This document shows positions 1-4,741 of a DNA stretch of 25,341 bases, piece after piece. The position numbers and the translations under genes are program-made. Numbering within the stretch: the first letter of the stretch is position 1; each line of letters opens with the position of its first letter. The notes under the pieces are model-generated. The model was not told the DNA's origin. It made no database searches and saw nothing but the letters and a program-made list of their open reading frames with translations. The DNA comes from a virus, in the UHGV virus genome UHGV-1632499; one strand, 5' to 3'.

Positions 1-74
1 AGAAGTATGGCTCCCAACTGGAGCTGATATTTCGTTTTATCGATCGCGCGCTGGCGATTGGGGTGTTGGCCTGA
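1..74 (+). CDS. 3' end of an upstream gene, truncated by the window edge; function unknown
   Basis: Open frame runs from the window start to a TGA at 72-74 (...KYGSQLELIFRFIDRALAIGVLA*), directly upstream of Q. No similarity recognised. Confidence 0.25.
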   Translation, partial: KYGSQLELIFRFIDRALAIGVLA

Positions 75-91
75 TTTGGTGGAGAAAGTTG

Positions 92-457
92 ATGCGTGAT
101 ATTCAGATGGTTCTGGAGCGTTGGGGAGCATGGGCGGCGAGTGATAGTTCTGGAGTAGACTATTCGCCTATAGCTGCTGGGTTTAAGGGGCTTCTTCCCT
201 ACACAAGCAAAACACGTCAGGCTTGTTCAGATAGTGATGCATTAATTATTGAAGGTTGTCTTGCTCGTCTAAAGCAAAAAAAGCCAGATGAGCACTCGCT
301 GCTTGTGGCACATTATTTATACAGAATATCCAAGCGTAAGATTGCAAAGGTGCGTGGAAAGGATGAAAAATTGGTACGCATAGAAATACAACTAGCCGAA
401 GGATTTATTGATGGTTGCCTTTCAATGTTGGATGTTAACCTTGAAATGGACGCTTAG
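92..457 (+). CDS. Q: Late-gene antitermination protein Q (short Q family)
   Basis: N-terminus MRDIQMVLERWGAWAA... matches my recollection of short Q antiterminators in E. coli prophages. GGAGAAAG lies upstream of the ATG at 92 (the ORF track begins at a TTG at 89). Position just upstream of the lysis cassette fits. Confidence 0.75.
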   Translation: MRDIQMVLERWGAWAASDSSGVDYSPIAAGFKGLLPYTSKTRQACSDSDALIIEGCLARLKQKKPDEHSLLVAHYLYRISKRKIAKVRGKDEKLVRIEIQLAEGFIDGCLSMLDVNLEMDA

Positions 458-463
458 GGTTGC

Positions 464-493
464 ACAGGTTGGCCCCATATGAGGCCAACCTGT
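464..493. terminator. Perfect 11-bp stem hairpin between convergent Q and the antisense cassette; candidate bidirectional terminator or insulator
   Basis: ACAGGTTGGCC (464-474), 8-nt loop, GGCCAACCTGT (483-493). Sits directly after the Q stop and abuts the stop (493-495) of the minus-strand membrane-protein gene. No canonical U-tract immediately follows on either strand. Confidence 0.35.
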
Positions 494-942
494 CACAAGT
501 GGGGGAAGATTTTTCGTAACACTAACCAACACCTTCCGAAGGTATATAGCGAAATTATAAGGGAGGATAAGCCTAACAGTATGAACAGGAAATCAATAGG
601 TTTGCCCGCAACAATAACATCATCAGGTAGAAACATCGCTATCAATGGAAATATACATGCGACGATGAGAGTTAACCCTGTTGAAAGTAATCTATTTACC
701 AGAGTTGGTAACACGTTGTTTTGCTTAAGGGCATTAATTGCTCCTTCCTTATCGCTGTTTGCACTACTAAATATAGATATTGCAGCCAGAACAAAACCAA
801 ACAGGATGCCTGATATAGTCGAGAGCACCCCCGCTGTTGTGAGTACGTCAGCATGCTTCATCGGTTTAAACAGTTTTGTCGCTGCATAGGTCAACAGAAT
901 CCAGAGGACGCATTTCCAGAGAAAAGTGGCTAATTCTCTCAT
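493..942 (-). CDS. Small integral membrane protein with about four predicted TM helices; second gene of an antisense two-gene cargo operon
   Basis: ORF track gives 493..954. The internal ATG at 942 is preferred because GGAGGA sits 4 nt upstream of it. Four hydrophobic stretches (FLWKCVLWILLTYAATKLF; VLSTISGILFGFVLAAISIF; LLSTGLTLIVACIFPLIAMFL; IDFLFILLGLSSLIISLYTF). AT-rich compared with neighbouring phage genes. Confidence 0.7.
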   Translation of the reverse strand: MRELATFLWKCVLWILLTYAATKLFKPMKHADVLTTAGVLSTISGILFGFVLAAISIFSSANSDKEGAINALKQNNVLPTLVNRLLSTGLTLIVACIFPLIAMFLPDDVIVAGKPIDFLFILLGLSSLIISLYTFGRCWLVLRKIFPHL

Positions 943-963
943 TGTGTCCTCCATGCTTGGTTA

Positions 964-1905
964 TTAGTCTCTGCTAGCGAGCTCATACTGTGCAAGATAG
1001 TTCGCGTTATCAATTTTAGCAGATATCATCGCCGTTCTGATATCAGAATCGGATGGATAACCGCTTTTGACAATGATTGTCTTTGTACTGACCAATACTT
1101 GGTCAAGTAGACTTTTGGGCGTTCTATTGGATGGCTCTGTTACATCAATTTTTTTAATTTTTAGACCTCCAGAACCTTTTGGAAAAAGTTCAAGTAGTTC
1201 CTTAATAGCATCGGTGACAGAAGTTTTTAGATAGTTAAACCCTTGTTTTTTCGGGCGAATCCGACCTCGCATATTTAATCTTAGATGCGACCCGCCCATA
1301 CCAACAACCATGTCAATAATTTCATTAGCTAAAGGGTTTTTAATCTTATAATTAGCTTTGTTAAAGTTTCTTGGAGCAGCAACTATAAGATCGAAACTAC
1401 GTAGGATATTTCCGTCCTCAAGCAGTTCCTTCATGCTCTCTTGTTTCCAAATGGCTTCAAAAGTGACGCTTTTTAAATCAGTTTTGTTATACAAAATGAA
1501 TGCCAGATCATTTACTTTGGGCCCTATATGGTTGAGGGTCATAGCTAATAAGTCCGTTTCGTAGTAATAGATAAAATATGTTCTTTCAACTACAGAATCT
1601 TTATCATTTAAAGGAATTGTTCTCTCACTACCTGTAGCATCCTCGATGAACGGTAGTAGGCATTCCCTTCTCCACGATACGTAACCAAAGTAACATTGCA
1701 GTGTGGTATCTTTTTGAAGAATAACTAACTTTAACCCTCGATTTGGGGTGTCTGTTGTGTAAGTTATTGGAAAAGTTACAGTATCTGCTGTGGTCATTTG
1801 CTCAAAGGCTAGTTTTGCAGCAGATGTGCCATCTTTTTTGCTTCCATTACCAGTGAAAAAACCAACTCTCACTCGCCTGGTTTTATTCTTATTTTCTGTA
1901 CTCAT
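964..1905 (-). CDS. Hypothetical 313-aa soluble protein of unknown function; first gene of the antisense two-gene cargo operon
   Basis: Long uninterrupted ORF on the minus strand, followed 21 nt later by the membrane-protein gene (operon-like spacing). AT-rich. No motif I can assign; no GS...DxD nucleotidyltransferase signature, no obvious nuclease or ATPase motif. Confidence 0.7.
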   Translation of the reverse strand: MSTENKNKTRRVRVGFFTGNGSKKDGTSAAKLAFEQMTTADTVTFPITYTTDTPNRGLKLVILQKDTTLQCYFGYVSWRRECLLPFIEDATGSERTIPLNDKDSVVERTYFIYYYETDLLAMTLNHIGPKVNDLAFILYNKTDLKSVTFEAIWKQESMKELLEDGNILRSFDLIVAAPRNFNKANYKIKNPLANEIIDMVVGMGGSHLRLNMRGRIRPKKQGFNYLKTSVTDAIKELLELFPKGSGGLKIKKIDVTEPSNRTPKSLLDQVLVSTKTIIVKSGYPSDSDIRTAMISAKIDNANYLAQYELASRD

Positions 1906-1965
1906 TATCGATCCGAAATAATTTTAGCAACCGTGTGAAAAATACAACAAAAAAAAGAGGAAATC

Positions 1966-1994
1966 ATTAGCGCGGTCCGCAAAAAACATTGTAA
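1966..1994 (+). promoter_or_regulatory. Candidate sigma70 late promoter (pR'-like) upstream of the terminator and lysis genes
   Basis: TTAGCG (1966-1971), 17-bp spacer, TGTAAT (1989-1994). Located where a Q-dependent late promoter is expected. Match to consensus is weak. Confidence 0.2.
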
Positions 1995-2027
1995 TCTGTT
2001 AAGAGTGGTTACTTCGCCACACAGCTT

Positions 2028-2057
2028 AAACCCGCCGTCGAGCGGGTTTTGTCGTTT
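2028..2057 (+). terminator. Rho-independent terminator, probably the tR'-like late terminator that Q reads through
   Basis: AAACCCGC (2028-2035), 6-nt loop, GCGGGTTT (2042-2049), then a T-rich tract TGTCGTTTCTG. Lies between Q and the holin, as tR' does in lambdoid phages. Confidence 0.55.
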
Positions 2058-2201
2058 CTGTGGCTGGGGATTCGTTGGTCCTGGCCTATTCCGCAGTTCT
2101 CCATCGGTTCGGCTTCTTTGATGTTTCCGCTTCTGATTTGCGGTACATGATGTTCCCTCAATTTGCACCTGCTGTATCAGCGAGGTGAGAGATAACTACA
2201 A

Positions 2202-2528
2202 ATGCCTCATAACCCAAATACCTGGCTGGAGTTGGTCCAGAGCTGGTGGCGTGGAGACACACCGCTGGGCGCAGTGATTATGTCGATCGTTATGGCTGGC
2301 TTGCGCATTGCCTATTTTGGCGGTGGTGGTGGCTGGAAACGAAAAACGCTCGAGATTTTGCTCTGTGGTGCTCTGACGCTGACTTTTGCATCCGCTCTTG
2401 AGTATGTCGGATGGCCTAAATCTCTTTCTGTTGCCATTGGTGGCGGCGTTGGGCTGATCGGGGTCGATGCTATTCGTGGGGCTGCAATGAGAGTAATCGG
2501 TAATAAGTTTGGTGGCTCTAAGGAGTAA
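2202..2528 (+). CDS. Holin (class I, three predicted TM segments)
   Basis: 108 aa with three hydrophobic segments and a charged C-terminus, immediately upstream of the R endolysin. GAGGTGAGAG lies upstream of the ATG. Confidence 0.75.
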   Translation: MPHNPNTWLELVQSWWRGDTPLGAVIMSIVMAGLRIAYFGGGGGWKRKTLEILLCGALTLTFASALEYVGWPKSLSVAIGGGVGLIGVDAIRGAAMRVIGNKFGGSKE

Positions 2529-2531
2529 TTT

Positions 2532-3014
2532 ATGCAGGTACTAAATTCCCAGCGTAAAGCTTTCCTCGATATGGTGGCATGGTCAGAAGGAACGGATAAC
2601 GGGCGACAACCGACACGTAACCACGGTTATGACGTTATTGTCGGAGGTGAACTGTTCACTGATTACTCCGATCACCCTCGCAAACTTGTCACGCTAAACC
2701 CGAAACTTAAATCAACAGCCGCAGGACGTTATCAGCTTCTTTCACGCTGGTGGGATGCTTACCGTAAGCAGCTTGGGCTGAAAGACTTCTCTCCAAAAAG
2801 CCAGGATGCTGTGGCATTGCAGCAGATTAAAGAGCGTGGTGCTTTACCGATGATTGATCGCGGCGATATCCGTCAGGCTATTGATCGTTGCAGCAATATC
2901 TGGGCGTCATTGCCGGGCGCTGGTTATGGTCAGTTCGAACATAAGGTTGACAGCCTGATTGAAAAATTCAAAGAATCGGGCGGAACGGTCAGAGAAATTC
3001 AGCTATATGAGTAG
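2532..3014 (+). CDS. R: Endolysin, lambda R-type lytic transglycosylase
   Basis: Near-identical over most of its length to lambda R as I recall it ([134 protein letters not shown]). AAGGAG RBS upstream. Confidence 0.95.
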
Positions 3015-3471
3015 AGTAACTGCGATTCTGTCCTCTCTGGTTATCTGCACCATCGTCTGCCTATCATGGGCTGTTAATCATTATCGTGATAACGCCATCG
3101 CCTACAAAGAACAGCGCGATAAAGCGAAGGAAAAACTCAGCCAGGCGAACGCCACCATTACTGAGATGCAGCAGCGCCAGCGTGATGTTTCTGCGCTCGA
3201 TGCGAAATACACCGGAGAACTTGCAAATGCTAAAGCAACTATTGAACAGCTTCAGCGTGATGTTGCTGTTGGCACTAAGCGGCTGTTCCTCGCCGCTAGT
3301 TGCCCGAGAGTGCAATCAACGACCATTACCACCAGCCTGGATGATGCTACCGCCCCCCGACTTACTGACACCGCTCAACGGGATTATTTCACCCTCAGAG
3401 AGAGAATTGAAATCAGTTATAAACAGATAAGAGCATTGCAGGACTATATCTCTAGTCAGTGTGAAAAATAA
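3007..3471 (+). CDS. Rz: Rz inner-membrane spanin (i-spanin)
   Basis: [34 protein letters not shown]... closely resembles lambda Rz. The start overlaps the R stop as in lambda. ORF track begins earlier, at 2959. Confidence 0.9.
3227..3430 (+). CDS. Rz1: Rz1 outer-membrane lipoprotein spanin (o-spanin), embedded in the +1 frame of Rz
   Basis: Within ORF 3086..3430, the internal ATG at 3227 gives [22 protein letters not shown]... (lipobox LSGC) followed by a proline-rich [26 protein letters not shown], like lambda Rz1. Confidence 0.85.
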
Positions 3472-3528
3472 AATTGCTTTCGATGTATGGATCTGGACAT
3501 CTTTTTTTTCTACTATGCTGACTGAGAA

Positions 3529-4311
3529 TTGAAACGTATATGGATATTCTATATGAAAAGAAAAAAATTAGAAGGTCCCGGGTGTGAATCATATGAAGGG
3601 TTAGATGTTGAATATTATATTGATTCCGAAACGGGGGAATTTAAAGCGGTTTATACATTCAATAATGAAATTGTAGATCGCATAAAATTGAGTGGGCGTA
3701 TTGCCGATAGAGCATCTTCACTGTCCCTAATTCATAGGGACTTAAAAAGTGCTAAAGAGTGGTACCAAATAGCTAATGAACTGGCAGGGAGAAATGAATT
3801 AAGGACAGATGGCAAGTTATACGGGAATATACTTGATCTAGATTTATCAAGTGAAATTAGAGCGTTATTTGTGGCAAGCCTAACGTTTTATGGTAAAGCT
3901 TTCTCTGAAGCTAAAGGGAGAAAGTTAAAGATGGAGCGTGATTGGCTTGATTCTGAATATTTTGGGTTGCATGACTGTATTATTAACTACAGGCATAATT
4001 TTGCAGCACATAGCGGCAACCAAGACTATGAGTCAGCAGAAACTTCATTGTTACTAATAAGGAAAAATGGGAAAACATTTTATCAAGCAGTGACAGATAG
4101 AAAACAACTGAGCATGATTGGTGTCGAGGACGAGCATGTTGATATGATTAATTTATTTGAACATGCGATACAGGTTGTTGAGAAAAAATATAATGAAACA
4201 TTAGAGAGAATTAGAACCTATGTCATGCAAAAGAGTTATTCTTTTTGGTGTTTAGCTGCCACAGGGAAAGATCCCGTCAATTTAGATAAGTTAAATAAGA
4301 AGAAAAAATAA
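3529..4311 (+). CDS. Hypothetical 260-aa protein; AT-rich orphan cargo gene between spanins and the packaging module
   Basis: Strongly AT-rich and lysine-rich ORF unlike its neighbours, followed by its own terminator. ORF track start at 3529 is a TTG; the first ATG is at 3553 (MKRKKLEGPG...). No family recognised. Confidence 0.65.
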   Translation: MKRIWIFYMKRKKLEGPGCESYEGLDVEYYIDSETGEFKAVYTFNNEIVDRIKLSGRIADRASSLSLIHRDLKSAKEWYQIANELAGRNELRTDGKLYGNILDLDLSSEIRALFVASLTFYGKAFSEAKGRKLKMERDWLDSEYFGLHDCIINYRHNFAAHSGNQDYESAETSLLLIRKNGKTFYQAVTDRKQLSMIGVEDEHVDMINLFEHAIQVVEKKYNETLERIRTYVMQKSYSFWCLAATGKDPVNLDKLNKKKK

Positions 4312-4347
4312 ACCTACTCTTCACATTAGTAACATTAGTAGATGCTA

Positions 4348-4377
4348 AGCCACTAGCAATCGATGGTGGCTTTTTTA
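4348..4377 (+). terminator. Rho-independent terminator downstream of the 260-aa cargo gene
   Basis: AGCCAC (4348-4353), loop, GTGGCT (4366-4371), running into TTTTTTATT. Confidence 0.5.
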
Positions 4378-4390
4378 TTGGAGCTTACCA

Positions 4391-4741
4391 ATGCCACCAC
4401 GAACCCCAAAAGCCTGCCGTGTTCGCGGCTGCCGCTCTACAACCACAGACCCGTCAGGCTACTGCGAAAGCCACAAAAGCGAAGGCTGGAAGCAATACAA
4501 GCCAGGTCAGTCCCGTCATCAGCGCGGTTATGGTTCGAAGTGGGACGCTATCCGCGCGCGTGTGCTGAAGCGTGACAAAGGTTTATGTCAGTTATGTCTG
4601 CGTGCCGGTGTGGTGCGTGAGGCGAAAACCGTTGACCACATCATCCCTAAAGCGCATGGCGGCACTGATGCCGACTGTAATCTGCAGAGTCTGTGTTGGC
4701 CGTGTCATAAGGCGAAGACGGCCCGTGAACGGTTAAAGTGA
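4391..4741 (+). CDS. HNH homing-type endonuclease associated with the terminase
   Basis: Cys-rich N-terminus (CRVRGCRSTTTDPSGYCESH), HNH core (DHIIPKAHGG...NLQSLCWPCH), and position directly upstream of the terminase small subunit as in HK97-like packaging modules. Confidence 0.85.
   Translation: MPPRTPKACRVRGCRSTTTDPSGYCESHKSEGWKQYKPGQSRHQRGYGSKWDAIRARVLKRDKGLCQLCLRAGVVREAKTVDHIIPKAHGGTDADCNLQSLCWPCHKAKTARERLK

Follow-up and report, generated by a model that had tools for sequence, protein, structure and literature searches.

Organization of the late region

The window studied here is the whole 25,341-nucleotide stretch of the virus genome UHGV-1632499, with positions counted from its first letter. 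At its left end it holds a lambdoid prophage's late region, and the element in question is the segment 1961–2059. This is very probably the late control cassette of the prophage, made up of a late promoter (pR'), a Q-utilisation site (qut) and a terminator (tR'), and it belongs with an antiterminator Q of the small branch of the Q21/933W family. The Q gene (92–457, plus strand) codes for 121 amino acids when read from the ATG at 92; the list of open reading frames (ORFs) begins it at a TTG at 89. Two genes on the minus strand come next, here called the cargo, encoding a membrane protein of 153 amino acids (493–954) and a protein of 313 amino acids (964–1905), which leaves about 1.5 kb between the end of Q (457) and the cassette. 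Beyond the cassette, the plus strand carries the holin as the first late gene (2202–2528; PF05106, Phage_holin_3_1, E = 5.7e-25), a putative lysozyme gene (2532–3014) and Rz, which ends at 3471 (PF03245). The second of these is read by its position and has no Pfam match; its product is presumably a lysozyme, from its likeness to lambda R. A terminase-like ORF appears to follow the lysis genes, judged by reading the sequence rather than by a family search.

The Q protein is matched by Pfam family PF06530 (Phage_antitermQ) with an E-value of 7.7e-52 and falls into PHROG 79 (anti-termination protein Q-like). Yin et al. (bioRxiv 10.1101/651190) equate PF06530 with the Q21/933W family, and the Q of the window belongs to the small branch of that family. 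The sequence match to the solved Q21 protein is weak (E = 0.002), with the residues Ser-Lys-Arg of Q opposite Ser93, Lys94 and His95 of Q21. In the latter protein, Ser93 and Lys94 contact the DNA backbone and His95 is among the residues that contact bases (Shi et al., PMC6606751).

Conservation of the cassette and its place relative to Q

Around 200 related loci form the basis of the comparison. When phage records were searched by BLAST, 83 matches to the region were obtained, and the homology of the module with other phages starts at about position 1961. In the cargo-less phages PhiR49_2 and Stx2_14040 (a Stx2a phage), this homology already sets in within the final bases of Q and the module is located 39–42 bp past the Q stop codon, while in Sakai Sp5 the module overlaps the stop codon. 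In SfII, SfIV, PA-2, Turner and Lambda_4C10 it is found just 5' of the holin, with one or two antisense genes preceding it, and wherever cargo is present it lies 0.6 to 3 kb past Q. An exact 19-mer of the module occurs in at least 120 viral contigs, as 61 unique variants. Of 127 viral loci, 102 have a Q gene of the PF06530 type upstream and in the same orientation, and in the remaining 25 the upstream sequence is shorter than 2.6 kb; the spacing between the end of the Q match and the GTTAAG sequence is 627 to 2954 bp apart from six loci, five with 42 bp and one with 69 bp. A search starting from Q, with one genome per species, gave 80 loci, in which the module was then sought with a profile. 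It is present downstream of Q, on the Q strand, in 71 of them, across the Enterobacterales (Escherichia, Yersinia, Serratia, Erwinia, Pantoea, Xenorhabdus, Proteus and other genera). Megablast with positions 1961–2060 finds matches in 2464 of the 5426 complete E. coli genomes. A scan of positions 1–4500 of the window against Rfam gave no match at E ≤ 1.

The pR'/qut/tR' arrangement upstream of the holin had been proposed in an earlier note made from the sequence by itself. It is supported by the comparative data on the conserved module and by the published start-site maps of homologous modules, discussed below. The same note described Q as parted from the late promoter by an antisense insertion, and this separation is real, amounting to about 1.5 kb with two minus-strand genes; it is, however, not peculiar to the window but the usual state in the family. 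The cassette is an ordinary representative of a type of control region that is well known, and the textbook picture is unchanged. An 87-amino acid ORF on the minus strand (1905–2168), already suspected to be spurious, has no Pfam family and overlaps the conserved non-coding signals, and can be marked as an annotation artefact.

Promoter and transcription start

The −10 hexamer of the late promoter is TAATCT (1992–1997), a conserved TAnnnT. Among 41 unique upstream variants, the T at −12 is present in 39, the A at −11 and the T at −7 are present in all, and the interior is free to vary; the same TAnnnT is found in the species-level loci of Yersinia, Serratia, Erwinia, Xenorhabdus, Proteus and others. 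Conservation of the first, second and sixth bases around a free interior is the signature of a sigma-70 −10 element. The −35 region as a whole is poorly conserved, although a YTA motif recurs across relatives at the place of TTAGCG (1967–1972), the hexamer first proposed as the −35, which matches TTGACA in three of six positions and is 19 bp away from the conserved −10. The original proposal combined TTAGCG with a 17-bp spacer and TGTAAT. Both hexamers and the spacer exist, but one base to the right of where they had been placed (they are really at 1967–1972 and 1990–1995), and the true −10 is TAATCT, two bases to the right of TGTAAT, while TTAGCG abuts the palindrome described below. The pair TTAGCG/TGTAAT is not listed by our promoter scan, because TGTAAT has no A at its second position. 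Further upstream is an A-rich tract (1949–1963, −55 to −41), resembling an UP element, and it may act as one; A is the commonest base at −45 to −38, both in the 41 unique upstream variants and in the species-level loci. On the other strand, it forms a T tract just 5' of the candidate −35 of the cargo promoter.

The predicted transcription start is A2004, 7 nt past the −10, where the primary 5' ends of homologues are located: their mapped starts lie 7 nt 3' of TAnnnT. For the DLP12 prophage of E. coli K-12, the start was predicted at position 577229 of NC_000913.3 before the Cappable-seq table was consulted. The table contains a transcription start site (TSS) at U00096.2 576452(+), with a relative read score (RRS) of 1.7 and a log2 enrichment of 4.8 (Ettwiller et al., PMC4782308), and addition of the 777-bp offset between the genome versions leads to the homologous A (L128 position 6230, in our numbering of the locus). 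The offset is inferred and is backed by the strong neighbouring TSS at 576081, which with it falls 7 nt after a TATTAT. For Sakai Sp5, the pR' start has been mapped to 1,266,203 and the RNA 3' end to 1,266,460, 257 nt apart, by dRNA-seq (differential RNA-seq) together with Term-seq (Sy et al., PMC7547250). In the corresponding locus (L211), the distance from the homologous A (A846) to the last T of the U tract of the distal terminator (T1103) is likewise 257 nt. The mapped start agrees with the homologous A within about 2 nt, using an offset of 142 that is inferred and backed by the end of the U tract. The possibility that TAnnnT is instead the pause element of a promoter further upstream was rejected, as there is no conserved −10 or −35 upstream of it and the mapped starts lie 7 nt after it.

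Terminator and predicted short leader

The start is followed by an intrinsic, tR'-like terminator (2028–2059, plus strand), consisting of an 8-bp stem formed by AAACCCGC (2028–2035) and GCGGGTTT (2042–2049), a 6-nt loop (CGTCGA) and the T-rich tail TGTCGTTTCT (2050–2059). The hairpin ends 145 bp 5' of the holin ATG at 2202, so that a hairpin and T tract are indeed present where a strong terminator had been claimed, about 145 bp before the holin. The support for it comes from conservation; a consensus terminator scan taken alone is not above chance, with 5 sites in 4 kb against 4.3 expected. The predicted leader (2004–2062) folds at −19.6 kcal/mol (z = −2.3), and the terminated leader RNA is expected to be about 47–55 nt long. 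Perfect-stem terminators with a T-rich tail are found in 80 of 104 unique leaders, starting between +24 and +58, nearly all of them between +24 and +40. The stems vary by lineage (AAACCCGC, AAACCTCGC, AACCCTGCC, AAATCCTGC and AAAACCGC), with some paired changes, and several are unrelated in sequence (AAACCTCGC/GCGGGGTTT, AAATCCTGC/GCAGGATTT and AAAACCGC/GCGGTTTT); in one locus, an unrelated terminator occupies the same place. Such differing or unrelated stems at a kept position indicate that the function of the terminator has been kept while its sequence has turned over. The terminator scan finds no second terminator before the holin in the window.

Nearer to the start, a small 5' leader hairpin, GUGGU/GCCAC (2005–2020, plus strand), is predicted in the window and in most relatives, with 83% of cells paired and a few two-sided changes. 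In loci of the PA-2 type (L005, L006 and a further 21 from IMG/VR), the terminator has GCTGG and not GCGGG as its 3' arm. With this change the stem is broken and the predicted fold is weakened (−8.4 in place of −14.1 kcal/mol); phages of this type may have a leaky late terminator. The 3' end of the K-12 DLP12 leader was not found in the supplements of the 3'-end mapping and SMRT-Cappable-seq papers.

The palindrome and the Q classes

A 9-bp palindrome, GCGGTCCGC (1972–1980, plus strand, −32 to −24), is located upstream of the −10 and is followed by an A tract (1981–1986). In all variants the palindrome has the same spacing, 11 nt 5' of the −10, and an A or T tract follows; the palindromes of relatives are GCGTACGC, ACGTACGT, GCGCTACGC, GCGTTACGC, TCGTAACGA, TGTTATAACA or TACGATCGTA. 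The class of the palindrome corresponds one-to-one to the class of the loop/helix motif of Q, without exception in 100 of 100 distinct combinations, where a combination is a distinct set of Q sequence, spacing and element. A DEK-like motif in Q goes together with GCGGNCCGC (about 36 combinations) and an SDGT-like motif with GCGTACGC (about 38), while SDGY is paired with ACGTACGT (8), SEGK with TCGTAACGA (4), SEGR-like motifs with GCGCTACGC (4), and SEGM, SLNQ and SDCW with GCGTTACGC, TGTTATAAC and TACAATCGT, respectively (2 each). The classes come from a motif-based table, which replaced a single-linkage clustering of the DNA-binding region of Q at 60% identity that merged classes A and B (adjusted Rand index 0.16). 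The table pairs each class of Q with a DNA site and is testable as such. The varying segment of Q aligns to the helix-loop-helix of Q21. Two cargo families, including that of the window, carry both class A and class B pairs, and in them the match between Q and palindrome is kept.

Known Q-binding elements (QBEs) are located between the −35 and the −10 (Shi et al., PMC6606751). This position, together with the match to the class of Q, leads us to read the palindrome as the probable QBE of the small-Q branch, for which GCGGTCCGC is the candidate element in the window. A wider proposal is tentative, and we give it somewhat less than an even chance. According to it, the QBE of the small-Q branch (the QuuD, 933W and SfII types) would be a short palindrome of the form (G/A/T)CG-N2-3-CG(C/T/A), whose centre and arms would be read by a few residues of the loop and recognition helix of Q, and binding would be symmetric, where Q21 binds in tandem. 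A dedicated slot taking almost exclusively backwards cargo (63 of 65 clusters, most of them of unknown function) would also be bracketed by the Q gene and its site, and transcription of that cargo would run into Q and could damp it in lysogens.

A candidate pause element and repeats around the start

A second −10-like sequence, TAAGAGT (2000–2006, plus strand, −4 to +3), overlaps the start and is a candidate sigma-dependent pause element (SDPE). Its AAGAGT begins three bases past the −10 and is exactly conserved in roughly 55 of the 71 species-level loci, counted by hand. TAAGAGT resembles the SDPE of phage 21, TAAGCTG (annotation of OL657228), and the lambda sequence AACGAT-GGG. Its assignment as a pause element is the weakest part of our model. 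Between +4 and +24 of the leader there is no TAnnnT, and the first 24 nt contain no further −10-like element that is conserved. A pause motif of the TNYG kind was also considered; TTCG (2013–2016) is present in the E. coli copies, is not conserved in other genera, and was discarded.

The start of the leader is flanked by an inverted repeat, TTAAG (1999–2003) and CTTAA (2025–2029). In other genera its counterpart is GATAAG...CTTATC or ATG...CAT, which looks like covariation. Pairing of TTAAG with CTTAA as a structure of the pR' RNA was rejected: the 5' half is upstream of the mapped start, and Sakai is without the 3' half.

Antisense cargo and a possible divergent promoter

The two cargo proteins of the window belong to PHROG 7651 and 8552, both of unknown function. 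The pair has no match in PADLOC, NCBIfam or the PDB, and the 153-amino acid protein has a sub-threshold Pfam match only, to DUF4064. In 152 loci, 65 cargo protein clusters are located between Q and the module, and 63 of these face against Q and the late genes; among them are the lc/nmpC porin and a large number of gene pairs without known function. The Q–pR' junction is an insertion hotspot and a general slot for antisense cargo, whose presence there is the rule in the family. The limits of this slot, which holds many uncharacterised gene pairs, are hereby defined. It is, like the table of Q classes and palindromes, a by-product of moderate interest.

The start of the module homology (about 1961) and the cargo ATG (1905) are 55 bp apart, and in this place other cargos are preceded by AT-rich regions of their own. 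A divergent cargo promoter is plausible here on the minus strand (1921–1950), with a −35 TTGTTG (1950–1945), an 18-bp spacer and the extended −10 TGCTAAAAT (1929–1921). Transcription from it would start near G1914, giving a predicted leader of 9 nt before the ATG. The general promoter scan does not list this promoter. A minus-strand cargo promoter with a TAAAAT element had been proposed before; the element is found at 1926–1921, after TGC, and the promoter as a whole is a consensus match. The compact divergent control region that had been envisaged likewise agrees with predicted starts about 90 bp apart, that of the cargo being derived from the same consensus match.

At the other end of the cargo, an 11-bp perfect hairpin, ACAGGTTGGCC/GGCCAACCTGT, is located at 464–493 between the convergent Q and cargo genes (z = −2.2). 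It overlaps the stop codon of the 153-amino acid gene and has no T tract on either strand, so that cargo transcripts might run antisense into Q.

Comparison with known late control regions

The late control region of phage 21 (OL657228), for whose Q protein structures have been solved (PDB entries 6P18 and 6JNX), has the same order of elements as the window: −35, Q site (a candidate one in the window), −10, start, a −10-like element near the start (in phage 21 the SDPE), terminator and late genes. Both Q proteins belong to PF06530, although that of the window is smaller (121 against 162 amino acids), and the phage 21 terminator ends at +50, so the leader is similarly short. Phage 21 has a −35 of sequence TTGACA and the QBE ATTGAGCA-AATGAGCA, whereas the −35 of the window is poor. 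The Q site of phage 21 is formed by two direct 8-bp repeats at −27 to −12, where the candidate of the window is a 9-bp palindrome at −32 to −24, and the −10-like element is at +2 to +8 instead of −4 to +3. In phage 21 the promoter is next to Q, unlike in the window, where cargo lies in between.

The Stx phages with a Q of 144 amino acids (933W, Sakai Sp5 and Sp15) have a module homologous to that of the window, containing the palindrome TACGATCGTA, an A tract, TATCAT, GAT, AAGAGTGGTTAC and a proximal hairpin with a U tract. In Sakai, the reported RNA reaches a second terminator after 258 nt and its last 74 nt are the small RNA StxS; the window is without this distal part, and its holin leader follows immediately. 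Of the longer form, StxS-L, the first 46 nt have 81% identity to positions 2004–2050, while the 74-nt part, StxS-S, has only chance matches in the window. An assignment of the window sequence as StxS itself was rejected, given that the 74-nt part is absent and homology is limited to nt 1–46 of StxS-L.

The DLP12 prophage of K-12 (quuD, nmpC and essD) and phage PA-2 (Q, lc and S) share the architecture of the window, with a small Q of the PF06530 type, an antisense porin as cargo, the module and the lysis genes. They differ from it in the class of Q and the palindrome (ACGTACGT with an SDGY motif), in the cargo and in the holin type. According to works cited in PMC7918800, the Q of DLP12 controls the DLP12 lysis cassette. 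Related copies of the cassette are found in K-12 DLP12 and in Shiga-toxin phages; in the latter, it is this promoter from which the toxin is expressed.

The pR'/qut/tR' region of lambda with its 6S RNA follows the same logic as that proposed for the window, with a constitutive late promoter, a Q site between the −35 and the −10, a sigma-dependent pause near the start and a terminated short RNA. The start regions are alike (AACGATGGGTTAATTCGC in lambda and AAGAGTGGTTACTTCGC in the window). The Q family of lambda is unrelated (PF03589), about 190 nt lie between its start and its terminator, which makes for a far longer leader, and its pause element is at +1 to +6. Lambda Q also needs a −35-like element that is missing from the late promoters of other lambdoid phages (PMC6606751).

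Model for late gene control and alternatives

In the model, host RNA polymerase with sigma-70 would start at about A2004, using the −10 TAATCT, the poor −35 and the A-rich upstream tract. Without Q, it would terminate some 50 nt on, at the hairpin 2028–2049 with its T tract, releasing a short leader RNA and leaving holin, lysozyme and Rz unexpressed. Once the prophage is induced, Q produced by the early operon would bind the palindrome just 5' of the −10 and engage polymerase held near the start, probably via TAAGAGT. Q would then travel with the polymerase, the terminator would be ignored, and the lysis and morphogenesis genes would be transcribed. The two cargo genes are most likely transcribed divergently from their own promoter about 90 bp away. 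A cassette of this kind decides when the prophage lyses its host, and the corrected placing of promoter, start and Q site would explain how Q controls late genes across 1.5 kb.

Several observations speak against the model. The −35 is poor (three of six bases, 19-bp spacer), the start-site signal in K-12 is weak (RRS 1.7 with a cut-off of 1.5), and the conversions by which both mapped starts were placed (142 and 777) are inferred. TAAGAGT is nearer to the −10 than the pause elements of lambda and phage 21, and five species-level loci have ATGAGT or ATGTGT at this site, without the key A. The candidate QBE, at −32 to −24, does not coincide with the direct repeats of Q21 at about −27 to −12, and its match to Q could partly reflect linkage and not selection. 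Sakai Sp5 has the same proximal hairpin, with U7 (L211 870–897, +25 to +52), but its RNA has been reported to end at +258; in that phage, then, the proximal terminator may be leaky, and its efficiency may be partial. The paper on StxS (PMC7547250) does not discuss this hairpin.

In one alternative, the palindrome is not a Q site. It could be a part of the promoter (−35 or spacer) or the operator of another regulator, with co-inheritance producing the match to Q; the distance from Q to the module never exceeds about 3 kb, so that linkage is strong, the palindrome does overlap the −35 position, and its inverted form is unlike the direct repeats bound by Q21. We regard this as unlikely, if not negligibly so, given that the match has no exception over about eight classes, many cargos and several genera and is kept where class A and class B pairs share the same two cargo families, that the part of Q varying with the palindrome aligns to the DNA-contacting helix-loop-helix of Q21, and that known QBEs sit between −35 and −10. 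A different question is whether the short leader RNA could be the main product, as a constitutive prophage small RNA that acts in trans besides its role in antitermination. In Stx phages, processing of the pR'-tR' RNA yields StxS, which binds Hfq (PMC7547250), and the leader of the window is highly conserved, in addition to its 81% identity to the start of StxS-L. Yet the functional StxS-S is absent from the window, no Rfam family is matched, the K-12 signal is weak and the constraints of promoter, pause and terminator can account for the conservation, making this explanation improbable.

That the module is a Q-independent promoter with an attenuator under host factors (such as sigma-E or stress), Q acting elsewhere or not at all, is very improbable. 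The poor −35, the weak K-12 start-site signal and the lack of a canonical pause element 3' of the start would fit it, and PMC7918800 cites work on regulation of the DLP12 lysis cassette by RpoE and Hha besides Q. Such host inputs could, however, be additional rather than alternative. The module always follows a PF06530 Q gene, in the same orientation, and directly adjoins it when cargo is absent, the palindrome beside the −10 tracks the class of Q exactly, the −10 has the sigma-70 signature TAnnnT, and the layout is that of phage 21. Since the late promoter adjoins Q in lambda, phage 21 and Sakai, it may also be asked whether the true late promoter is directly after Q, at 458–492, with late transcription crossing the cargo antisense and 1961–2059 serving only as an insulator or terminator. 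However, 458–492 contains only a hairpin and no promoter-like site, what adjoins Q in phages lacking cargo is precisely the module that the window has at 1961–2059, and the primary 5' ends of K-12, where nmpC likewise parts the module from quuD, are inside the module. We consider this arrangement extremely improbable.

The lysis leader and further reading frames

The late (lysis) mRNA leader (2060–2201, plus strand) is homologous across phages with two holin types, with its invariant columns mostly in the last 45 nt. The region 2058–2230 is not unusually structured (z = +1.4), and its centroid fold contains only the local hairpin at 2166–2187. In the searches made, a 42-amino acid ORF at 2060–2188 matched neither a Pfam nor a PHROG family. 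The hairpin at 2166–2187 pairs the Shine-Dalgarno sequence of the holin, GAGGTG (2182–2187), with CACCUG and may control translation of the holin; an equivalent arrangement precedes the different holin type of DLP12 and Lambda_4C10. Directly 3' of Rz, a 260-amino acid ORF (3529–4311), which has no match in Pfam, PADLOC or NCBIfam, may be another moron.

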